From positions 47,055 through 111,054 of IMG/VR virus record IMGVR_UViG_3300036799_000043: a stretch of DNA of 64,000 bases; one strand, given 5' to 3'. The notes below the pieces were generated by a model. It did no database searches and was not told the origin of the DNA. It worked only from the letters and a program-made list of their open reading frames with translations. Made by a program: the position numbers and the translations under genes. This DNA is from a virus. Positions within the stretch are counted from its first letter, which is position 1. Every line of letters begins with the position of its first letter. Shown one piece after another: positions 3,248-47,842 of this stretch.

Positions 3248-3313
3248 CTCACAGGCGTCGCAGTTTATCTGCGGCGCCTTCTCTGACACACACGACGAAT
3301 GGTGGGGCCACCG

Positions 3314-3790
3314 ATGAGTGACTTATTGATCGAGCGCGCGACACACGACGATTACTGGCTTATTCAGCAGATTGTAGAGTCTGCAAATTTGCCATCAGAC
3401 AATGTGCATTCGACACCGTTTCTGATTGCGCGCAAAGATCAAATACCAGTAGGCGTGATTGGCTACAGTATCGAGAGAGAGGGCTGGGTGCATGTGCGCT
3501 CACTCAGCGTACGTAAGTCGTTTCGGCGTCAAGGTATTGGCGAAGCACTGATACAAGCGCTCGTGGACTATCTCAAGACGCGCGATGACGCAACGGTGTT
3601 GATCGTTATGTGCATGTACTGGAACATTCGTTTCTACAAGAATCGAGGTTTTCAGCGCATCTCGTCGCAGGCGAAGCAACACGATCCAGTCGCAGCGCTT
3701 GAGGAACATTCGCACTGCACGTGCTTCGCTCTGCGACTACAGCAGCCTATTGAGGACGTGCTCGCGCCGCAGATGCTAAATGCCAAGTAG
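3314..3790 (+). CDS. GNAT family N-acetyltransferase
   Basis: SLSVRKSFRRQGIGEALI motif A and RFYKNRGF motif. Confidence 0.88.
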   Translation: MSDLLIERATHDDYWLIQQIVESANLPSDNVHSTPFLIARKDQIPVGVIGYSIEREGWVHVRSLSVRKSFRRQGIGEALIQALVDYLKTRDDATVLIVMCMYWNIRFYKNRGFQRISSQAKQHDPVAALEEHSHCTCFALRLQQPIEDVLAPQMLNAK

Positions 3791-4367
3791 GCCACCGCTA
3801 CCCGACAGTGACGCTGCGTACGTTTGCCGTAACCATCACACGGACGAGCTTGTCAGCGGCGCATTGTTCTCTCAAAACAACGAGCATCGATACGCGCTCT
3901 GGCGCATGTGGGGAGACGGTGCGTACGTGCTGTTTTGCGGATTGAACCCGTCGACTGCTGACGATCTCAAGAACGATCCGACGTGTACGCGTGAAGTGAA
4001 CTGGGCGCGAGCATGGGGCTTCGATGGCTTCGTCAAAGTGAACTGGGGCAGCTATCGCTCGACGAGTCCGCTCGTGCTCAAGGGTCTTGGGCCTGACACT
4101 GCGACTGGTGGGTTATTCAACGATATCGCGTTGATCCACTACGCTCGTCAGGCCGCGCTCGTCGTGGTGTGTTGGGGCGTACACGGTGCGCTCTGGCAGC
4201 ACGGTAGGAAGGTCGTCAGAGCATTGCAGACGTGGGACGTGCAGCCATACGCGTTTCACTTCTATCGCGCTGGTAAGCGTTACGCAGAGGTGGCAAACGG
4301 TGAGCCTCGTCACACGCTGTACCTGCCAAATTCTGCTCGACTGCACGCGTATCAAACGCGCCTCTAA
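3780..4367 (+). CDS. DUF1643 domain protein
   Basis: HRYALWRMW, GLNPSTAD..NDPT, VVVCWG, NGEPRH.LY motifs. Confidence 0.88.
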   Translation: MPSRPPLPDSDAAYVCRNHHTDELVSGALFSQNNEHRYALWRMWGDGAYVLFCGLNPSTADDLKNDPTCTREVNWARAWGFDGFVKVNWGSYRSTSPLVLKGLGPDTATGGLFNDIALIHYARQAALVVVCWGVHGALWQHGRKVVRALQTWDVQPYAFHFYRAGKRYAEVANGEPRHTLYLPNSARLHAYQTRL

Positions 4368-4395
4368 CGCCACGCTGATGCTGCTCTGATACGAG

Positions 4396-5064
4396 ATGTC
4401 GCATTCTGATGTACGTAAACAGACCGGGGTAGCTCAGTTGGTAGAGCACGGAGCGGGTACAAGTCGACACGATGAGCGCGCAGAGCACGTAGCTAGTGCC
4501 GAGCAGACTCAAAGCGAGAATTCGCGGCCCTTGCCGAAGCCAGACACGTTTGCAAGCGTGCGCGGAACAGGGAAAGAAACCTCCGAGGTCGTGGGTTCAA
4601 GTCCTGCCCCCGGTGCTAGATCGAGAGCAGGCGTACAGCTTCGCTGGCGTCAAGCTCTTGGCAGAGCAGAGTGCCCGTACGCGTACCGCTGGGTGCTGCC
4701 ACTCGGTCGCTTCGGCTCGATCAGGCTGCATCAGTGGTTGCGATCAGACGACGAGCGCGCAGCGCACGATCACCCGAGCGACTTTCTGACGCTCGTGCTG
4801 TTCGGCGGCTACGTCGACGCGCTTGAGCATGCAGACGGCTCGCAGAGTTACGACAGACTAGCTGTCGCAGCGGTGCGCTACAGACGCGCTGAGCACCGTC
4901 ACAGAGTCGTCCTGACGCATTCCCCAACGTGGACACTGCTGTACTTTGCGCCCGCGCGTCGTGACTGGGGTTTCTACAAGCGTCGAGCGATCGGTGGCTT
5001 TCGCTTTCTTCGGCAACACAAGTGGTTCGCGAGCTTCGGTCACCATCCGTGCGACCAGCAGTGA
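4396..5064 (+). CDS. Phage cupin-like protein (start uncertain; ORF reads through the tRNA-like element)
   Basis: RLHQWLRSDDERAAHDHP.DF.TLVLFGGY, HRHRV, WTLL...RRDWGF motifs in C-terminal 150 aa. Confidence 0.7.
   Translation: MSHSDVRKQTGVAQLVEHGAGTSRHDERAEHVASAEQTQSENSRPLPKPDTFASVRGTGKETSEVVGSSPAPGARSRAGVQLRWRQALGRAECPYAYRWVLPLGRFGSIRLHQWLRSDDERAAHDHPSDFLTLVLFGGYVDALEHADGSQSYDRLAVAAVRYRRAEHRHRVVLTHSPTWTLLYFAPARRDWGFYKRRAIGGFRFLRQHKWFASFGHHPCDQQ
4423..4615 (+). tRNA. tRNA-like RNA with 127-nt insert in place of the anticodon loop (Trp-like acceptor A1:U72/G73; anticodon undeterminable)
   Basis: Acceptor ACCGGGG/CCCCGGT; D arm GCTC-AGTTGGTA-GAGC; anticodon stem CGGAG(4449-53)/CTCCG(4581-85); T arm GTGGG-TTCAAGT-CCTGC. 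Confidence 0.75.
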
Positions 5065-5684: not shown

Positions 5685-5714
5685 TTGCGCTCGCAGTATG
5701 CAGCACTGTATATT
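5685..5714 (+). promoter_or_regulatory. Promoter/operator copy P2
   Basis: TTGCGC-18-TATATT; AGTATGCAGCACTGTATATT. Confidence 0.85.
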
Positions 5715-21728: not shown

Positions 21729-23774
21729 TCAGTTCGCGATCAGATCGACCTCAGTCTCGACCTCGTGCTGCCACTTCGTGAGTGCCTTACGTCGATGCGC
21801 GTGCCAGAGCTTTGCATTTTCTCCAGGAGCTTCCCAGCGGCAGTCGCGCTCGACATTGACACAGCGTGGGTTTTCGCACATGTGCTCGACTGACAGTACC
21901 CGAGCTTTCATGAGCATCGCGACTTCGTTGAGATCGAGACCTTCCTTGACTGCGAGCAGCAGCGCGTAGACGAGCCATTGACGCCCCATATACGTACAGC
22001 GTGGACGACCGTTGCTGCCCTCCTGACTGAGTGAGTAGCTTGTCTCTGTACAGCCGTTGATACCGTACGGCCAGACGTGTCGTTTCCAGATCGCTAGTAG
22101 CTGCTCTGCGTCTCGTTGATCCGCACGTAGTCGACTACCTGTGATCCACTCTGGCATCGCTACAGGACCCGCTACAGGTAGCTTGTGTTCGACGATGGAT
22201 AGCGTCGCTTCGTCCTCTTCCAGGAACTTCTCCGCGTCTGCATCAAAAACCTCTGCATCCAACTCATCGCTGTACTGTTGCAGCGGTGCGAGTGCAGCCC
22301 GCTCTTGTGGTGCAGCGGCTTCGTCGTCGTCTAAGCCGCCCTCTATTCTCGGCGCTACTCTGACGTGCTCTCTGTGTACAGCAGCGCGAGTGATGTACGG
22401 CGCGAGGGATACGGCTTGCACGCCGGGTCTGCCTGCGACTAAGTAACCCTCTAACTGATCGAGCGTCACGTTGAGTACAAGCTCGCTCGCGCGCACTGCG
22501 AGTCCGGGTAAGTCTTTGAGAATATCCTCGCACCATTGACGACTTTGACGCGCGAGTGGACCGAGTCCCATGATGAGTGAAACCGCAGCGTTCGCTTGCA
22601 GCACAGTGCCCAAGTCTTGCGGGTCTTGCGACAGATACAGAATGCGCCAACCGCGGGCGCGCATCGAGCGAAAAAGGTCGTCCATCTCTGTGCGTCGAGT
22701 CTTGAGAAACGCCGCTTCCTCGAGGACGAGAATGACATCGTGCACGACTTCGGCTGCACGCTTGCACTGCACAATACCCGCGACACCGATCAACGGTGTC
22801 AGCTTTGGATTCGTGTAGCTGTTGCCGCTAAGGTGAATGATGACGGGCTCGTCACGGCTAAGCTCTGACACGAGATCGAAGTCATTGCCGAGTGATTCTG
22901 AGCACACACGCGACAGCGACTTGAGTCGGCGCAGCCACGTCTTTCTCGCGAGCGCTGGGACTTCTTCGTCCTCTTCCATGATGCGCTGACAGCGAGCGAT
23001 CATGTCTGGCCACGTGCGCTGTCTGTTCGCGCTGTCAATCTCCTCAAGCGCTTGAGAGATAGCGTCGCTCATCAACTGCGAGAAGAAGCCGGTACTTCCG
23101 GGTGACTCCGGCCAGATCGTCGGGATTGCTTCGGCGATCATCTCGCGATCACCGTCGAGCACGTTCCAGCCCAATCCCATACGAATGCGCCAGCGCAGCA
23201 CGCGCATGCCCATGTCTTCGGCTTCGTTCGTTGCTTCCTCAATCGGGTCGCTGCGATCAAAGCTCAGCACAACGACTTTGCGGCGCTTCCAGAAGCCAAG
23301 CGAGCGCATGATCCGCATCTTGAGTCCGATAGTTGGCTGCAAAATCATCGACACGACTGCGGTGCTCTTGCCGCTACCAGAGCCACCGACGATGAGTGCG
23401 TGCGTCTGATCGAGATACGTCATGACGCCGCCGACGTACCAGTACCAGGGCTGCACGAAAAAGTTACGCCGCCACGATGCGAAGCGTCGATGCCAGGGTT
23501 GTCGTCTGACGCGTATTGGGCGAACTTCCTTGGCGAGTTTCGATGTCACTGCAAAAGACATTCGCACTCGATTGATGACGAGCGCGAGCATGAGCCACAG
23601 CACGCCGAAGACGATGACGAAGCCAGCCCATGCGTCGACGCCAAGGTCTGCGAGATGCGTCAGGTCTTGATTCTGCCACGCGTCTTTGAGCGCGTCGACT
23701 GTCGGGCTTAGCTGCGACAGCGTGTCTGGTAGCTGTCGCAGCCCAGGCGCGATCTGATCGAGCCAGTCGCGCAT
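21729..23774 (-). CDS. VirD4/TraD-like type IV coupling ATPase with C-terminal HNH/His-Me-finger-like domain
   Basis: N-terminal TM; Walker A GGSGSGKS; Walker B ILVLEEA; RARGWRILYLSQDPQDL; C-terminal VEHMCENPRCVN..EN. Confidence 0.8.
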   Translation of the reverse strand: MRDWLDQIAPGLRQLPDTLSQLSPTVDALKDAWQNQDLTHLADLGVDAWAGFVIVFGVLWLMLALVINRVRMSFAVTSKLAKEVRPIRVRRQPWHRRFASWRRNFFVQPWYWYVGGVMTYLDQTHALIVGGSGSGKSTAVVSMILQPTIGLKMRIMRSLGFWKRRKVVVLSFDRSDPIEEATNEAEDMGMRVLRWRIRMGLGWNVLDGDREMIAEAIPTIWPESPGSTGFFSQLMSDAISQALEEIDSANRQRTWPDMIARCQRIMEEDEEVPALARKTWLRRLKSLSRVCSESLGNDFDLVSELSRDEPVIIHLSGNSYTNPKLTPLIGVAGIVQCKRAAEVVHDVILVLEEAAFLKTRRTEMDDLFRSMRARGWRILYLSQDPQDLGTVLQANAAVSLIMGLGPLARQSRQWCEDILKDLPGLAVRASELVLNVTLDQLEGYLVAGRPGVQAVSLAPYITRAAVHREHVRVAPRIEGGLDDDEAAAPQERAALAPLQQYSDELDAEVFDADAEKFLEEDEATLSIVEHKLPVAGPVAMPEWITGSRLRADQRDAEQLLAIWKRHVWPYGINGCTETSYSLSQEGSNGRPRCTYMGRQWLVYALLLAVKEGLDLNEVAMLMKARVLSVEHMCENPRCVNVERDCRWEAPGENAKLWHAHRRKALTKWQHEVETEVDLIAN

Positions 23775-23775
23775 G

Positions 23776-24368
23776 TCAGACCCACGTGAAGATCAGCGCG
23801 ACAGCATCAGCGAGCAACGAAAACGTGCCGCTGATAAGCCGACCGATCAGACTGAGCGTCATGCGCGGTGAGAAGATCAAGCCAGCGACAAGTACTGCCG
23901 CGATGCCGATCAGAGTGATTGTCTGCTCCATACTGCCACCTCCTTTCAACGTAGATGCCATTACTCTACAGCATCCATTGGCTCGTGCAGAGTAGGCAGA
24001 TCGGGACCATGCCTGAATAGCCCTCTAGCAAGGCCGTAACGCACTGCGCGCTCGACAAGCACTGCTAGCGAGTACGCGGCGAAGTACAGCAGCAGAGCGG
24101 CGGCGACGAGCGCTCCCACCGCAACCTGCTGCGTTAGCTCGACAACGTGTGGGTCTGCGTTGATTGTCGGTGAGCCGTACATCGCTCGCCAGAGAACTGG
24201 GAACTGTGTCGGCAGTAGCGTCGTGAGCAGCGCGCAGATGATGACGTGTCTCGCCATTTTCGTGCGATTGAACTTGAATATAGCGGTGATGAGTAAGCCG
24301 GCTGACAGCCAGACGGCGACACCAAACACGAACCAATCGAGAAAATATGCCGAGTCAGACTTGAGCAT
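23776..24368 (-). other. Two small membrane proteins of the tra-like operon (23776-23961; 23961-24368)
   Basis: Hydrophobic TM segments, coupled to flanking genes. Confidence 0.65.
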
Positions 24369-26629
24369 CAGGCAGCCACCATTTCAACGCGACGCGCGCG
24401 TTTTTCGTCTGGGTCTGTCGTGTACAGCGTTTGCTCCTCGGGGCACGCTTCAATTTTGAAGCTGACGACTCGTCGACCAATGCGCATGACCGCGTTGCGT
24501 ACACGAGCGGCGTCAGTGTCCCCAGGGTTCGGCTGGAATTTCATGACCTCAGCGCTCGCAGCGTCTCCCAACTGCAGCGCAGCAACGATGCTCGCGACTT
24601 CGTTCGGTGCCTGCGCGAGCACGATGAGCACTGGCGACATGCTGATTGCCTTGCGCGTTTGTTCGTTCTTGAGAAAGTCCCAGGCTTCTTGCGACGCGAA
24701 GACGCCAACAATGTTCGCGTTACGCCCTTGCGTCGCGACGCGCTCGATAAAGTCGCGTCCCGCGTGTGTCTTGGCGAGTACGTTCGCCTCGTCACAGCCG
24801 AAGATACGTGGTGTCAGTGAGTCAAGCTGTCGCGCCCACTCGTACTCAGCGATATACGCGAGCGCTTCTGCCTGCTGCTGCTGATTGAGACTTGCCAAGT
24901 TGTAGCAAATAGCGTCACTCTCGACGTATGGGATGTCCAGCGGGTCAGTGACGACGATGTAGTCTCCGCCGCATGCGCGCATTAGCGGCCAATAGTCGCC
25001 GTGCTTTCTCTCGCTCAGATGCGGCTTGAGATCGATCAGCGTGAACGGCAGCCCAGAGCGCACGATGAGCATCTGGATTAGAAACGTCTTGCCAGCGCCA
25101 GTCGCGCCCAGCATCGCGATCATCTTTGCGTATAGCGCTTTGTCTTCGATGTCGAGCATGACGACTTCTTGTGCGCCGCGCGCAGTGCCGAGCACGAAGC
25201 CGTTATTGCGCAGGCCAGACTGCCCGAATGGATGCACTGCAGCAACAGTCTCGCCGAGGTATGGTCGTGTCGGTCCCAATGGCGGTAAGCCGCCGATCGG
25301 CAGCGTTGCCCAGCGCCCCTGCATGTGCTCGAAGGTTGCTTCGCGAAAGATCGCATTTGCTTTGCGTAGACGGTTCTTGACACGCGGTGCGAACGCTTTT
25401 GGCATTGTCAGCGCGAGTGTCACGCGCTGCACGCTGTCCTCGTTGCGCTTGAGCTTCGCCTCGACGTACTGCAGATCAGCGAGCGCGTCGCGATGCTCTG
25501 TTGCTGCGGTTGGAAGCATGCACGCGCCTTCAAACCACTCCATGATCTTCGTCACCCACGCTGCGTCGTCAGGCTCGAAGAACAGACCAATATCAACTGG
25601 CAGTCCAGACACGATGTACATGATCCACGCGACGACGACGTTACGTGGAAAGTAGCGCACGACGATTGTCACCCAGTCCGTGTTGTCGATACCAAAGCTC
25701 GTCGTCGAGTGCGGGAAGTACTTACGTGTGCCGAGCACGCTGTCGAGAATGTCGTGCATCTCGTCGAGCTTCGTTTCGCGCACTTGCAGTCCAGCGTCAG
25801 TCAGCGCGCCAGTCACATCGCGCACGTGCTCGACGAGCTTGTCAGCAGACGGTGCTGAGCACACGACGACGATTCGGCGACGAGTGAGCGCTACTGCACG
25901 CTGACGCATCCAGCGCTCGATAGCAGCGCGCAGAAACGCGAAGCGACTGCCTACTGGAGGCATTGTGTGCTCGACGAGCCAGTCAGGGTCTTCTGGTCGA
26001 CACTGCGCGACGATCTGCACTGGGTACGTTGTCGCCTTGATACCAGCAGTAAAGCCTGCCCAGCGTGACGCTCTGTCGCTGTCGGTCATAAGCTCGATAG
26101 CGCCTTGTGCGTCGACTGGAATCATCATGCGGTGCGGTACATGATGCTCCCAGTACGTAGTCTTCCAGGGCGTGTGCTGCATGATGCGCCAGAACGGTGG
26201 TTCGCGTACGAACGTGAGCGACTCGCCCTGCAGTCGCATGCGCAGCATCTTCTCCGCATCGACTGGGAAATAGGTCGCACCGCGTGGGTCGTCGTACACG
26301 TCATACACGGCGTCGCTGCGTAGAAACCAGTGCTTGAGCGCAACGAACAGCCATAGGTGCATCCAGCGACCGCCGGGATGCACGATCACGAACGACATGC
26401 CGAGTGTCAGCACAACGACACGCGCGAGCATCATTGGCGAGATCAGCGTGCCCTCCTGAAACGGCGTATCGTCGAGATGTATCCAATTGTCGAGGCCGAA
26501 CGTCAGCCCGACAGTCAACAGGGTGGCAGCTACCTGCCACCCTGTTGCATCGAACGGTTTGCGAAGCGGTATCCAGGGCGGGTCGTCACCGAGACGCACT
26601 GGAACATAGCACTCATCGGCGCGCATCAT
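24368..26629 (-). CDS. PrgI-like membrane domain fused to VirB4/TraC-like ATPase
   Basis: Two N-terminal TMs followed by PGGRWMHLW; Walker A GATGAGKT; Walker B IFGCDEAN; GRNANIVGVFASQ. Confidence 0.8.
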   Translation of the reverse strand: MMRADECYVPVRLGDDPPWIPLRKPFDATGWQVAATLLTVGLTFGLDNWIHLDDTPFQEGTLISPMMLARVVVLTLGMSFVIVHPGGRWMHLWLFVALKHWFLRSDAVYDVYDDPRGATYFPVDAEKMLRMRLQGESLTFVREPPFWRIMQHTPWKTTYWEHHVPHRMMIPVDAQGAIELMTDSDRASRWAGFTAGIKATTYPVQIVAQCRPEDPDWLVEHTMPPVGSRFAFLRAAIERWMRQRAVALTRRRIVVVCSAPSADKLVEHVRDVTGALTDAGLQVRETKLDEMHDILDSVLGTRKYFPHSTTSFGIDNTDWVTIVVRYFPRNVVVAWIMYIVSGLPVDIGLFFEPDDAAWVTKIMEWFEGACMLPTAATEHRDALADLQYVEAKLKRNEDSVQRVTLALTMPKAFAPRVKNRLRKANAIFREATFEHMQGRWATLPIGGLPPLGPTRPYLGETVAAVHPFGQSGLRNNGFVLGTARGAQEVVMLDIEDKALYAKMIAMLGATGAGKTFLIQMLIVRSGLPFTLIDLKPHLSERKHGDYWPLMRACGGDYIVVTDPLDIPYVESDAICYNLASLNQQQQAEALAYIAEYEWARQLDSLTPRIFGCDEANVLAKTHAGRDFIERVATQGRNANIVGVFASQEAWDFLKNEQTRKAISMSPVLIVLAQAPNEVASIVAALQLGDAASAEVMKFQPNPGDTDAARVRNAVMRIGRRVVSFKIEACPEEQTLYTTDPDEKRARRVEMVAA

Positions 26630-38081: not shown

Positions 38082-39731
38082 ATGGTAGTCGAGCAGTACG
38101 CGCCCGATGATGGGGGTTTCGACCGACTCTCGCTGCTCGAACAGCTTGAAGCTGACTACGCGTGGTGGCTCTGGCGACTGTTCCCGCAGTACTTCACAGA
38201 CGAATCTGGCAACGTCATTCCAATGGCAGACCATCACCACGACGCGTGGGAGTGGTTCTGGGAAATGCCAGATGCACGCCCGCGTCCGCTGATCTTCTTG
38301 CTGCCGCGTGGTGGCGGAAAGTCGACGACTGTTGAGCTTGGCGTGGTGTCGCTCGGCTGTCGCAACAAACGCAACTACGTGCTGTACGTGTCAGCGACGC
38401 AAGAGCAAGCTGACGATCACGTCACGAGCATTGGCGCGATGCTCGAATCACGCCGTCTAGAGATCGCGTACCCACAGATGTCAGATCGCTATGTCAACAA
38501 GTACGGCTCATCGAGAGGTTGGCGGCGAGATCGTCTGTGGACGAAAACGGGCTTTGTAATCGATGCGCTCGGACTCGACACTGCGAGTCGTGGCGTAAAA
38601 CTCGAGGATCGACGCCCAGACGTGATCGTGTTCGACGACATCGATGAGGATGGAGATACCGACAAAGAAGTGCGCAAGAAGGTGCGCATCATCACTCGTC
38701 GCTTACTGCCTGCTGCTGCGTCAGGTGGTAACACCGCAATAATCTTCTGTCAGAACCTCGTGCATGAGCGTTCGATAGCTGCTCTGCTGTGCAACCGCCA
38801 CCCTGATCCCAAGGGTGCGCAGCTTGACGACTTTCTCGTTGACAGACGCGTGATTGGTCCGATACCTGCTGTGCGCGACGCGGACGTACGCTTTCAGAAT
38901 AACCACTTTGAGCTAATCGCTGGCGAAGCGACATGGGCCGGTCAGTCGATTGAGGTCAATCAACGTCTGATCGATACAGACGGCTACTCGTCGTGGAAGC
39001 AAGAGCGTCAGCACGACGTAGAACCACCCGCTGGCGGCATGTTCTCGCATCTCGACTTTGAGGCTATGACTGTCGAGATGGCTGACGTACCGCCACTCGT
39101 GCGTATCGTCGGTGCGCTCGATCCCGCGGTGACGAATACAGACGACAGTGACTCTATGGCGCTGCAATTCGACGGCATTGGTGTCGACGACTGCATCTAT
39201 CGTCTGTGGTCGTGGGAGCAGCGTTCGACACCTGAGACAGCGATGGAGCTAGGCCTGCGGCGCTGCGTTCACTTCGGCGCAGATGCGCTCATCATCGAGA
39301 CAGATCAGGGCGGTGATCTGTGGCTAGAGAAAGCACCAGAGACATGGCTGCATCTCATCGCGAAGTGTGACGGTCGCGAGACAGATCAAGACTTTGCACC
39401 GCACTCAACAGCAGACGCGTGTCCGTATCTCGTGCACATCACTGAGAACTCGATCTTTCCAAGCGTGATCGGTATGAAAGCTGGCTCGACGCAGATGCCA
39501 AAAGCGCACCGTGCGTCACTCATGCTGCAGGACTACGAACGCCCGAATCAGATACGTCACGTGCGCAGTGGCACACATCAGGTGCTACGTGCTGCGCTGA
39601 ATCGCTTTCCGAAAACGAAGCCCCTGGACCTGACCGATGCCTCATTCTGGGCATGGAACGAACTGCGCAATCCGTCTGTCGTGCCGAGCTTCGTGCTGCA
39701 AGCTGCAGTCAGCGGGTGGTCACCGCGCTGA
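38082..39731 (+). CDS. terL: Terminase large subunit
   Basis: LPRGGGKST Walker A, VIVFDDID Walker B, GALDPA nuclease motif, DLTDA. Confidence 0.92.
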   Translation: MVVEQYAPDDGGFDRLSLLEQLEADYAWWLWRLFPQYFTDESGNVIPMADHHHDAWEWFWEMPDARPRPLIFLLPRGGGKSTTVELGVVSLGCRNKRNYVLYVSATQEQADDHVTSIGAMLESRRLEIAYPQMSDRYVNKYGSSRGWRRDRLWTKTGFVIDALGLDTASRGVKLEDRRPDVIVFDDIDEDGDTDKEVRKKVRIITRRLLPAAASGGNTAIIFCQNLVHERSIAALLCNRHPDPKGAQLDDFLVDRRVIGPIPAVRDADVRFQNNHFELIAGEATWAGQSIEVNQRLIDTDGYSSWKQERQHDVEPPAGGMFSHLDFEAMTVEMADVPPLVRIVGALDPAVTNTDDSDSMALQFDGIGVDDCIYRLWSWEQRSTPETAMELGLRRCVHFGADALIIETDQGGDLWLEKAPETWLHLIAKCDGRETDQDFAPHSTADACPYLVHITENSIFPSVIGMKAGSTQMPKAHRASLMLQDYERPNQIRHVRSGTHQVLRAALNRFPKTKPLDLTDASFWAWNELRNPSVVPSFVLQAAVSGWSPR

Positions 39732-41877: not shown

Positions 41878-41906
41878 ACTATACAGCACTGCTTACAAGA
41901 GCGCAA
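41878..41906 (-). promoter_or_regulatory. Promoter/operator copy P16 (minus strand)
   Basis: TTGCGC-17-TATAGT with GCAGTGCTG core on the reverse strand. Confidence 0.85.
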
Positions 41907-46402: not shown

Positions 46403-47842
46403 ATGCCAGACATTCCAGACGACACTCAGCAGGACGACGCTGCACGTGAGAGTGGCGACGCGACTATTCTGGTTTATCAATCGCCGCTGACGCGCATCAA
46501 GTCTGTCGAAGACACGAATAGCCTGCTCGATCTCGCGAAAGCGGATCACGCGTTCGATCCAAGTGTGTTCGACGAGAACCCGCCGTTTTTCTGGCGTACG
46601 GTACCGTCGACGCAGCTTATCGATTCGTACGGCACGCGCATGATGGACGACTCGCTGCAGAACTTCGCTGCAGACGCGACCGACGGACGCTCGTTCATGG
46701 CGGCGCATGACAGTCGCGACATGCCGCTGGGTCGCTCGTTACGCGGCGAGTACAAGAACGGTCGCACGAGCGGCGGCAAGCGCACCGAAGTCGACTTTTA
46801 CACGATCCCTGGCATGAAAACGCGCACGTTCAACACCGACGACTTTATTCTGGGCGTGCGCAGTGGCATCAATCACGACGTGTCGATTGGCTTTCACGGT
46901 GGCGAGATTCGCTGCTCAGTGTGCGGTGAGCGCTGGTGGTCATTCTTCGGCATGTCGTTTAGCGAGTGCGAGCACATGCCTGGCATGACCTATAAGAAGC
47001 TCGACGCAAAGGGTGCAGAGACAGACACCGACATCGTTGCGTCAGGCGACGTGTACGGCGCGCACATGTCAGAGGTGAGTGCTGTCTACGACGGCGCGAC
47101 ACCTGGTGCAGCAATCATTGGCATTCTGCGCGCAGAGCGCATGGTCGACGCCGGTCGAGTCTCGCCGGACAATGCGCGCAAACTCGAAGCGCGCTACCGC
47201 ATCAGTCTGCCAGTGCAGCACAACTGGCAGGGTTCGTCAACGCGTCAAGCTGGCGCAGCATCAACTACCTCTGAGGAGGAGGACACAATGCCGAAGGACG
47301 ACGCGCCGAAGACTGGCGCTAACGACAACGCTGCTGGCGACAACAACTCGTCTGCTGCAGCTAACAACAGCGCCGCTGGCGACAACAACTCTGCATCTGG
47401 CAACAACAATTCCAGTTCGGACGTTGCTGCTGCTGAGTCGCGTGGGCGTGCTGCTGGCGTGTTGAGCGTACGTTCGATGCTCGCTGAATACAGCATTATC
47501 AAGGGCGACGACCAGCGCGATCTGCCCACGATTCTGCGCGAGATCGGGCAGCAGCAGACACAGCAGCGCAGTCAAGCCGCCGACGGCGTGCAGTACCGCA
47601 AGGACCTCGTCGCAACTGCATTGGAAGAAGGAGTGCGTGCGCTGGGCGAGAGCTTCAACGCTGACACGTACAGGCCGGTTCTCGAAAGCGCAGACATCGA
47701 CACGATCAAACGTTTCCGAGACGACTGGAAAAAGGTCGGCGACGAGAAGCTCGCCGGTGGTCGCAAGACGACTGACGTAAACGGCCACGAGAACGGCACG
47801 AGCGGTCAGTTCAAGCCGCCGGCCAGCGTGCATCGCGGCTAG
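46403..47842 (+). CDS. Prohead protease / scaffolding protein
   Basis: AAHD..MPLGR, VSIGF, EVSAVYDGA; low-complexity linker and helical C-terminus. Confidence 0.8.
   Translation: MPDIPDDTQQDDAARESGDATILVYQSPLTRIKSVEDTNSLLDLAKADHAFDPSVFDENPPFFWRTVPSTQLIDSYGTRMMDDSLQNFAADATDGRSFMAAHDSRDMPLGRSLRGEYKNGRTSGGKRTEVDFYTIPGMKTRTFNTDDFILGVRSGINHDVSIGFHGGEIRCSVCGERWWSFFGMSFSECEHMPGMTYKKLDAKGAETDTDIVASGDVYGAHMSEVSAVYDGATPGAAIIGILRAERMVDAGRVSPDNARKLEARYRISLPVQHNWQGSSTRQAGAASTTSEEEDTMPKDDAPKTGANDNAAGDNNSSAAANNSAAGDNNSASGNNNSSSDVAAAESRGRAAGVLSVRSMLAEYSIIKGDDQRDLPTILREIGQQQTQQRSQAADGVQYRKDLVATALEEGVRALGESFNADTYRPVLESADIDTIKRFRDDWKKVGDEKLAGGRKTTDVNGHENGTSGQFKPPASVHRG

Follow-up and report, generated by a model that had tools for sequence, protein, structure and literature searches.

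What does a phage gain from a transfer RNA (tRNA)-shaped gene that appears unable to decode and is fused to the gene for an enzyme? Phage tRNA genes are usually read as codon-usage helpers, and the question is raised by the sole tRNA-shaped gene of the phage represented by IMG/VR virus record IMGVR_UViG_3300036799_000043 (111,054 bp). We analysed 64,000 nucleotides (nt) of this record (positions 47,055 to 111,054; hereafter ‘the window’, in which all coordinates below are given). Here, positions 4423-4615 of the plus strand form a tRNA cloverleaf with a long insert in place of the anticodon loop, and an open reading frame (ORF, 4396-5064) that ends in a cupin gene runs through the whole element. 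An initial annotation, made from the sequence letters, had offered three explanations: a novel intron, an anticodon-less tRNA mimic, or a processing signal controlling the cupin gene. We estimate, with a probability of about 0.6, that the element encodes a non-decoding, tRNA-shaped RNA which functions without splicing and is coupled to the downstream cupin gene. Genome comparison shows that other phages have kept this RNA alongside the cupin gene; as the two travel together and the start region of the gene lies inside the RNA, the mimic and control proposals both fit, and both are probably part of the answer.

A tRNA body without an anticodon loop

Read directly from the sequence, the cloverleaf is complete. 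The acceptor stem (ACCGGGG 4423-4429 with CCCCGGT 4608-4614) is followed by U8 and A9, a D arm (GCTC/GAGC, 4432-4447) with the canonical loop AGTTGGTA, A26, and an anticodon stem of five base pairs (CGGAG 4449-4453 with CTCCG 4581-4585), beyond which come a 5-nt variable loop (AGGTC, 4586-4590), a T arm with a canonical T loop (GTGGG-TTCAAGT-CCTGC, 4591-4607), and the discriminator G4615, with no encoded CCA. The tertiary core is represented by U8, A14, G15:C48, G18, G19, A21, U54, U55, C56 and A58. The 5' half of the body (4423-4453) also appears in the drawing produced by ARAGORN, and its pairs, like those of the 3' half (4581-4615), are kept in L101, a related metagenome contig described below. 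All the arms reported in the initial annotation are present, and only its word ‘perfect’ is slightly generous, given two G-U pairs in the T arm. Its suggestion of tRNA-Trp identity, based on A1:U72 and G73, fails because positions 1, 72 and 73 differ among relatives, which show A73, C1:G72 or G1:C72.

What the body lacks is an anticodon loop. The strands of the anticodon stem are separated by 127 nt (4454-4580), and the base directly after the 5' strand is G instead of U, both as first described. The element offers no 7-nt loop with U33 and a free anticodon: position 33 is G when the loop is read from the 5' side and A when it is read from the 3' side. Run without introns, ARAGORN calls no tRNA, either in the window or across the full record, and the phage has no ordinary tRNA gene; run with introns, as had been recommended, it makes a single call in the record, at 4423-4615 (Thr(GGU), 120-nt intron), which is the sole tRNA-like gene. 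With the insert deleted and either its first or its last seven bases kept as the loop, ARAGORN at default settings calls Thr(GGU) or Phe(GAA). Since the element is called after either deletion, its body is of tRNA quality and its ‘anticodon’ is ambiguous.

Fold, conservation and nature of the insert

The insert can be compared in full with that of L101, whose cupin is 73% identical to that of the window and which carries the same element directly before the cupin gene, with a 3' end of ACCA. The two inserts are of equal length, with zero indels (local alignment, z = 35), and a consensus fold of the two elements comprises 47 pairs, all of them standard in both sequences. Both sides have changed in 12 of the 47, nine of these in the insert, as against 0-1 when the pairing partners are slid by 1-3 columns; the covariation check proposed at the outset thus finds all changed pairs kept.

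The 5' domain of the insert (4454-4530), in which GGGU (4455-4458) pairs with GCCC (4527-4530) and closes three hairpins (4474-4476/4508-4510, 4486-4488/4496-4498 and 4514-4517/4522-4525), is 53% identical to its counterpart in L101 over 77 nt and keeps every predicted pair, eight of them changed on both sides. Three hairpins named in the initial annotation (GCAC/GTGC, GCGA-GAAT-TCGC and CACGTT/AGCGTG) do exist, their pairing preserved by compensatory changes; a mini-ORF that had been pointed out at 4472 can be set aside, its ATG having no counterpart in L101. The 3' domain (4531-4574) is an irregular hairpin (4531-4535/4570-4574, 4540-4541/4564-4565 and 4545-4548/4557-4560) that contains the in-frame codons TTG 4531 and GTG 4558. 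It is followed by an unpaired AGAAAC (4575-4580) adjoining the stem, which together with A4574 reads AAGAAAC, with a loop-like GAA and an A at position 33.

The last 50 nt of the insert (4531-4580) are 90% identical to L101. Their differences fall 4/1/0 on positions 1/2/3 of the codons in the cupin frame, and none of 16 third positions has changed; in the cupin gene the differences fall 34/28/75, and 75 of 139 third positions (54%) have changed. The 3' half of the insert is therefore under selection at the nucleotide level, not at the level of a peptide. The insert type is present in at least three phages, since a third phage contig encodes a protein, P0002 (cupin 70% identical), whose called N-terminus is a translation of the insert 3' domain and T arm. 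Folding energies give no signal relative to shuffled sequences (z = +1.06 for the insert, -0.13 for the whole element), and the case for a structured insert is made by covariation, not by energy.

These comparisons bear on the idea that the element is a decaying tRNA pseudogene, disrupted by junk or by a mobile insertion, which we regard as extremely improbable. The missing U33, the missing CCA and the silence of ARAGORN at default settings would suit such decay. However, the insert occurs once in the genome and is thus not a mobile element present in repeated copies; its length and structure are conserved in L101, with compensatory changes; and its sequence is conserved more strongly than the neighbouring gene, so that the L101 comparison already contradicts decay. 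The initial annotation had itself raised the prospect that homologous phages would have an ordinary tRNA here, with the insert as an unconserved, recent disruption. The first half of this holds, in that relatives carry a plain tRNA-like gene, but the second does not, the insert being conserved.

These plain genes, 73 nt long and free of any insert, precede the cupin gene in 11 of the closer cupin relatives (ten GC-rich IMG/VR loci and L102); their 3' ends lie 33-42 nt ahead of the codon for Cys in the ECPY motif of the cupin. In three of them the acceptor stem is identical to that of the window element. Their loops read CAGAUGA, CAGAUUA, CGAACGC or CGGAUGA, never with U33, and an alignment of the ten insert-free relatives has changes on both sides in 13 of 21 pairs. 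In the insert-free, GC-rich loci L017-L027, a conserved block (consensus ~CTGGGAGCC.ACC) and a GC-rich stretch lie 15-45 nt upstream of the tRNA-like gene; no counterpart was found in the window.

Insert-bearing elements also occur in a wider set of phages, where what is shared is the position and design of the insert together with a GAA junction motif: 14 of 18 such elements have a GAA triplet 2-3 bases ahead of the strand that closes the stem on the 3' side (AAGAAAC, 4574-4580, in the window). Short motifs that by eye suggested homology of the insert with those of the phages CcrColossus and RHph_Y1_11, with L001 or with T4 rnaC were dropped after shuffle tests. Scans of IMG/VR with two motifs built on these resemblances (CCGAGCA..AAAGCG.GAATT and TTGCCGAAG..CGGAA..GGGA) returned chance matches in coding DNA and no further tRNA-like genes; neither the conserved 3' motif nor a close relative of the cupin turned up in a scan of GTDB genomes, and BLAST of the region against cultured phages gave no DNA match. 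A covariance model built from the window and L101 mostly retrieves tRNA bodies, without separating insert types.

Could the insert be an intron, some 120 nt in length and of a new kind, whose removal yields a working tRNA? Its presence in the window, L101 and P0002 and its absence from the close relative L102 are intron-like, and its 3' half is conserved in the manner of a catalytic core. There is also a precedent in Lak megaphages, whose tRNA genes contain ‘enigmatic’ introns with no mechanism given (Devoto et al. 2019, PMC6784885). Those are likewise long, highly conserved inserts in phage tRNA genes, seen only by intron-aware prediction and unclassified by Rfam, but they sit in otherwise assignable tRNAs with no reported link to a cupin (PMC6784885); in the window, by contrast, excision restores no normal loop and the RNA overlaps the cupin gene, a distinction drawn from the description of the Lak inserts, not from sequence comparison.

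Several results speak against splicing, and we consider an intron-bearing tRNA unlikely on sequence grounds. An Rfam search of 4300-4750, as had been proposed, gave no match to a group I intron (RF00028) or ribozyme at E-values up to 10, only noise (FTX_5, mir-790), and RF00028 has no match in the whole record, while control genomes did match. Genes for a splicing endonuclease (PF01974) and for RtcB (PF01139) are absent from the phage record, and inspection by eye revealed no bulge-helix-bulge motif. If the 5-bp stem is kept and a 7-nt loop is assembled from k bases of the 5' flank and 7-k of the 3' flank, position 33 is G or A for every k, and U33 cannot be restored because the last 20 nt of the insert hold no U; L101 likewise allows no excision that gives U33, and the insert-free relatives do without it. 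The GGU triplet that ARAGORN calls an anticodon belongs to the GGGU helix, where G4456:C4529 is replaced by A:U in L101, and is therefore base-paired. Finally, related RNAs carry extra domains at other sites, in the D loop (L126, L121a, L103) or in the variable/T region (L009), for which a single splicing mechanism would not account.

Known introns fit no better. Group I introns in the anticodon loops of bacterial tRNA genes share with the insert both the site and the variation in presence and absence, but they measure at least about 200 nt. The insert (120-127 nt) is far smaller than these, does not match RF00028, and leaves no canonical loop after removal.

The cupin gene and its start inside the RNA

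The gene tied to this RNA is shorter than its ORF. Homology to the cupin covers 4633-5061 (followed by a stop codon, to 5064), as supported by phrog_4786, by homologues and by an AlphaFold model; the upstream part (4396-4632), which reads through the RNA, is probably not conserved protein. The match to phrog_4786, labelled ‘cysteine dioxygenase’ in PHROGs, spans residues 80-196 of ORF 4396-5064, and homologues comprise 141-144 amino acids, starting 4-13 residues before a conserved Trp. The model of 4648-5061, built with 28 homologues in the alignment, has a predicted local distance difference test (pLDDT) score of 96, and its best Foldseek matches are ergothioneine dioxygenase 8qfp (E 1e-6, template modelling (TM) score 0.68) and then thiol dioxygenase 4tlf. 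An H-D-H and a later His are invariant in the 28 cupin sequences; by sequence, the protein matches nothing in Pfam or the Protein Data Bank. The model points to a thiol-dioxygenase-type barrel with a predicted His-rich metal site.

The first conserved cupin codon begins 18 nt after the end of the element. No in-frame ATG, GTG or TTG occurs between 4616 and 4692, and L101 likewise has none between the RNA 3' end and the conserved residues; translation of the cupin must therefore begin inside the RNA. In-frame candidates are GTG 4591 in the T stem, GTG 4558, TTG 4531 in an insert helix, TTG 4438 and ATG 4396. The first of these is preceded, at short spacing, by a Shine-Dalgarno-like GAGG (4585-4588). 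In L101 the T-stem GTG is absent and the TTG matching 4531 is kept, the same TTG being the called start in P0002. The counterpart of GTG 4613 is used as a start in some relatives; in the window this codon is out of frame. Among the ten insert-free loci, the T-stem GTG is in frame in eight, and others start within 3-6 nt after the RNA.

Public annotation does not reflect this arrangement. The gene call for the window cupin, P0001 (123 amino acids), begins at GTG 4693 and so leaves off some 20 conserved residues at the N-terminus, the invariant ECPY motif among them, and the calls for P0002, P0004 and the RHph_Y1_11 methyltransferase extend into or through the tRNA-like RNA. Default tRNA finders miss genes of this kind, and gene callers run ORFs through them or shorten the cupin, as in this record.

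If the whole of ORF 4396-5064 were translated, the tRNA-like stretch would be an N-terminal extension of the cupin, and its RNA fold incidental or secondary. The frame is indeed open through the element in the window, in L101 and in the ten insert-free relatives, the insert length is a multiple of 3 without an indel relative to L101, and gene callers begin P0002 and P0004 inside or upstream of the element. Against this stands the substitution pattern, for across the whole element the differences from L101 fall 17/20/16 by codon position in the cupin frame, without the excess at third positions seen in the cupin gene, and the five changes in the insert 3' half are confined to positions 1 and 2. 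L101 has a second open frame as well, the register of the frame against the tRNA is shifted by one base between the window clade and the insert-free clade, and homologues elsewhere start close to the conserved Trp. By itself, an open frame says little for translation of the entire ORF, and such an extension seems to us very improbable. The in-frame nesting described initially is real, in that the ORF is open and the excess over a 7-nt loop is 120 nt, but the cupin itself occupies only 4633-5061, and no coding pattern of substitution is seen upstream of 4633.

Linkage, possible roles and genomic setting

The association of RNA and cupin extends well beyond the window. In the window, L101, L102 and ten IMG/VR loci, the cupin gene is directly preceded on its own strand by a tRNA body that lacks a canonical anticodon loop. 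Among 43 distinct cupin loci with enough flanking sequence, 33 have a same-strand ARAGORN tRNA or tRNA-like call no more than 1150 nt upstream (no more than 150 nt in 15 of the 33), as against nine with such a call within 1150 nt downstream; one more upstream tRNA-like gene, in L037, was found with the covariance model. The genes neighbouring the pair in L101 differ from those in the window, with no shared GNAT or DUF1643 gene, which indicates that RNA and cupin move as a pair. In CcrColossus, Bajun, RHph_Y1_11 and AT-rich phages, insert-bearing tRNA-like genes precede a small methyltransferase gene, which is followed by the cupin; in the three named phages, they occupy stretches that carry no annotation in the phage records. 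CcrColossus, Bajun, L034 and L121 have such RNAs in tandem pairs, and in L004 the copies are separated from the following gene by hundreds of nt. ACCA is encoded at the RNA 3' end in many relatives, which suggests that the RNA is released.

AT-rich phages with the methyltransferase-cupin pair (L001, L107, L108, L112, L114, L117, L118, L120, L125, L130 and L132) have a small tRNA array upstream. These arrays repeatedly place a tRNA with a CUA anticodon (amber-suppressor type, labelled ‘Pyl’ by ARAGORN) beside tRNA-Ile(GAU), and some hold tRNAs with anticodon loops of 8 or 9 nt.

One way in which a non-decoding RNA and the cupin could be linked is through a transcript with two fates. When the cloverleaf folds, host ribonuclease (RNase) P, a 3' nuclease and the CCA-adding enzyme could release a stable RNA, whose role towards the thiol-dioxygenase-like cupin might be that of partner, substrate or decoy. 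The same folding and cutting would hide or remove the start region (GAGG 4585-4588, GTG 4591, TTG 4531), and the cupin would be translated when the RNA is unfolded, so that folding would set the balance of RNA and enzyme. Because the initiation region lies inside the folded RNA, folding or processing of the RNA and translation of the cupin should exclude one another.

Much of this would also be expected if the fold acted only in cis, as a processing and translation-control signal (RNase P/Z punctuation, masking of the start), and the released RNA had no function; we regard this as possible, if rather unlikely. The start region lies inside the RNA in the window and in L101, and starts in relatives fall a few nt from the RNA 3' end or inside the T arm. 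The element also lies between two copies of a promoter-like repeat, the nearest upstream at 1317-1345 and the next at 5685-5714, both on the plus strand, which places RNA and cupin in what is probably one polycistronic unit together with the GNAT and DUF1643 genes. No sigma-70-like site was seen near the element, and the only terminator-like hairpin between the element and 5550 is a weak one inside the cupin gene (4981-4996). Control in cis does not, however, readily explain the tandem RNAs or the distant copies in L004; ACCA ends and a full tertiary core exceed the needs of a cleavage signal; and masking alone would hardly account for a 3' insert domain that is nearly invariant.

If an RNA is released and functions, it may be a tRNA analogue excluded from the ribosome and complexed with the cupin, serving either as a charged carrier whose aminoacyl group or base is the substrate, or as an anti-defence decoy; we put this forward tentatively, as a rather doubtful refinement. 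In the decoy version, RNA and enzyme would neutralise a host defence aimed at tRNA.

Several points weigh against a functional RNA tied to the cupin. The adjacency of the two could reflect regulation alone, and the window element, for its part, encodes no CCA. The covariation in the insert comes from two sequences, L101 being the sole full relative of the insert type. In local alignments with the inserts of L006, CcrColossus and L001 and with T4 rnaC, the window insert did not score above shuffles (z 0.7-2.5), and homology of the insert beyond L101 and P0002 is thus not supported by alignment. The usual NPP-motif methyltransferase is not in this genome either (tblastn with five such proteins, best E 0.098); the GC-rich, insert-free relatives likewise lack it.

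A non-decoding, cupin-linked RNA would have partial parallels among known RNAs. YrlA and Y RNA, which bind Ro60 (RF02553), likewise combine a tRNA-like module, no decoding and a protein partner, and some phages encode YrlA; their topology is the opposite, however, with the acceptor-like stem closed and the long stem open. The window has no match to RF02553 and the record no TROVE/Ro60 gene, and a weak RF02553 match in CcrColossus merely spans two adjacent tRNA-like genes. Transfer-messenger RNA (tmRNA) likewise links an acceptor and T arm of tRNA type to additional structured RNA and to a reading frame. The window element differs in having C:G rather than G3:U70 at 3:70, a full D arm and anticodon stem, a mini-ORF that is not conserved, and an ordinary enzyme gene as its downstream frame. 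A search with ARAGORN found no tmRNA in the window or record, in keeping with the absence of tmRNA hallmarks noted initially.

Among viral RNAs, the tRNA-like structures of plant RNA viruses are likewise tRNA-shaped and non-decoding, but they terminate an RNA genome at its 3' end and their acceptor is pseudoknotted, whereas the window element is a gene of a DNA phage with a standard acceptor stem, set in an operon. T4 produces RNAC and RNAD (species 1 and 2), small stable RNAs from its tRNA cluster whose roles are still unknown (PMC3014915). By eye, the 3' portion of T4 rnaC resembles a T arm and acceptor-like end; we rejected rnaC and rnaD as members, the covariance model scoring 7.5 bits on rnaC and the local alignment not exceeding shuffles, and T4 is not among 61 phage records with a homologue of the window cupin. 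Our literature search turned up no publication describing a cupin-linked tRNA-like RNA.

The pairing recurs in unrelated phages of soil, water and gut, including cultured phages of Caulobacter, Brevundimonas and Rhizobium, which makes the question directly testable. Should the RNA work with the cupin, the pair would represent a new class of phage RNA-enzyme module, widespread and undescribed, in which structured expansions are grafted onto a tRNA scaffold.

As to the phage itself, the record encodes a large terminase, portal, major head and sheath proteins and represents a contractile-tailed phage (58% G+C); no close cultured relative was found. The GNAT acetyltransferase and DUF1643 genes (3299-4367) lie directly upstream of the element on the same strand. 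The promoter-like motif consists of TTGCGC, a conserved spacer of 17-18 nt, and YATABT, and occurs nine times in the window against 0.11 expected, at 1317, 5685, 13704, 15118, 15804, 17312, 20426 and 29882 on the plus strand and at 41878 on the minus strand. The heptamer ACACGAC is over-represented (36 sites in the window against 24.6 expected), often a short way downstream of the promoter motif or immediately ahead of a gene start (1357, 3290, 5144, 5728, 9177 and 17353 are examples), and a copy with one mismatch, ACACGAT, lies within the insert at 4466-4472. Two large ORFs on the minus strand (681 and 753 amino acids; 21729-26629) have weak PHROG matches to terminase-type ATPases, the true large terminase being encoded at 38082-39731. 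The first 100 nt of the record are repeated at 110,840, so that its ends share 100-200 nt, as either a direct repeat or an overlap left by assembly.

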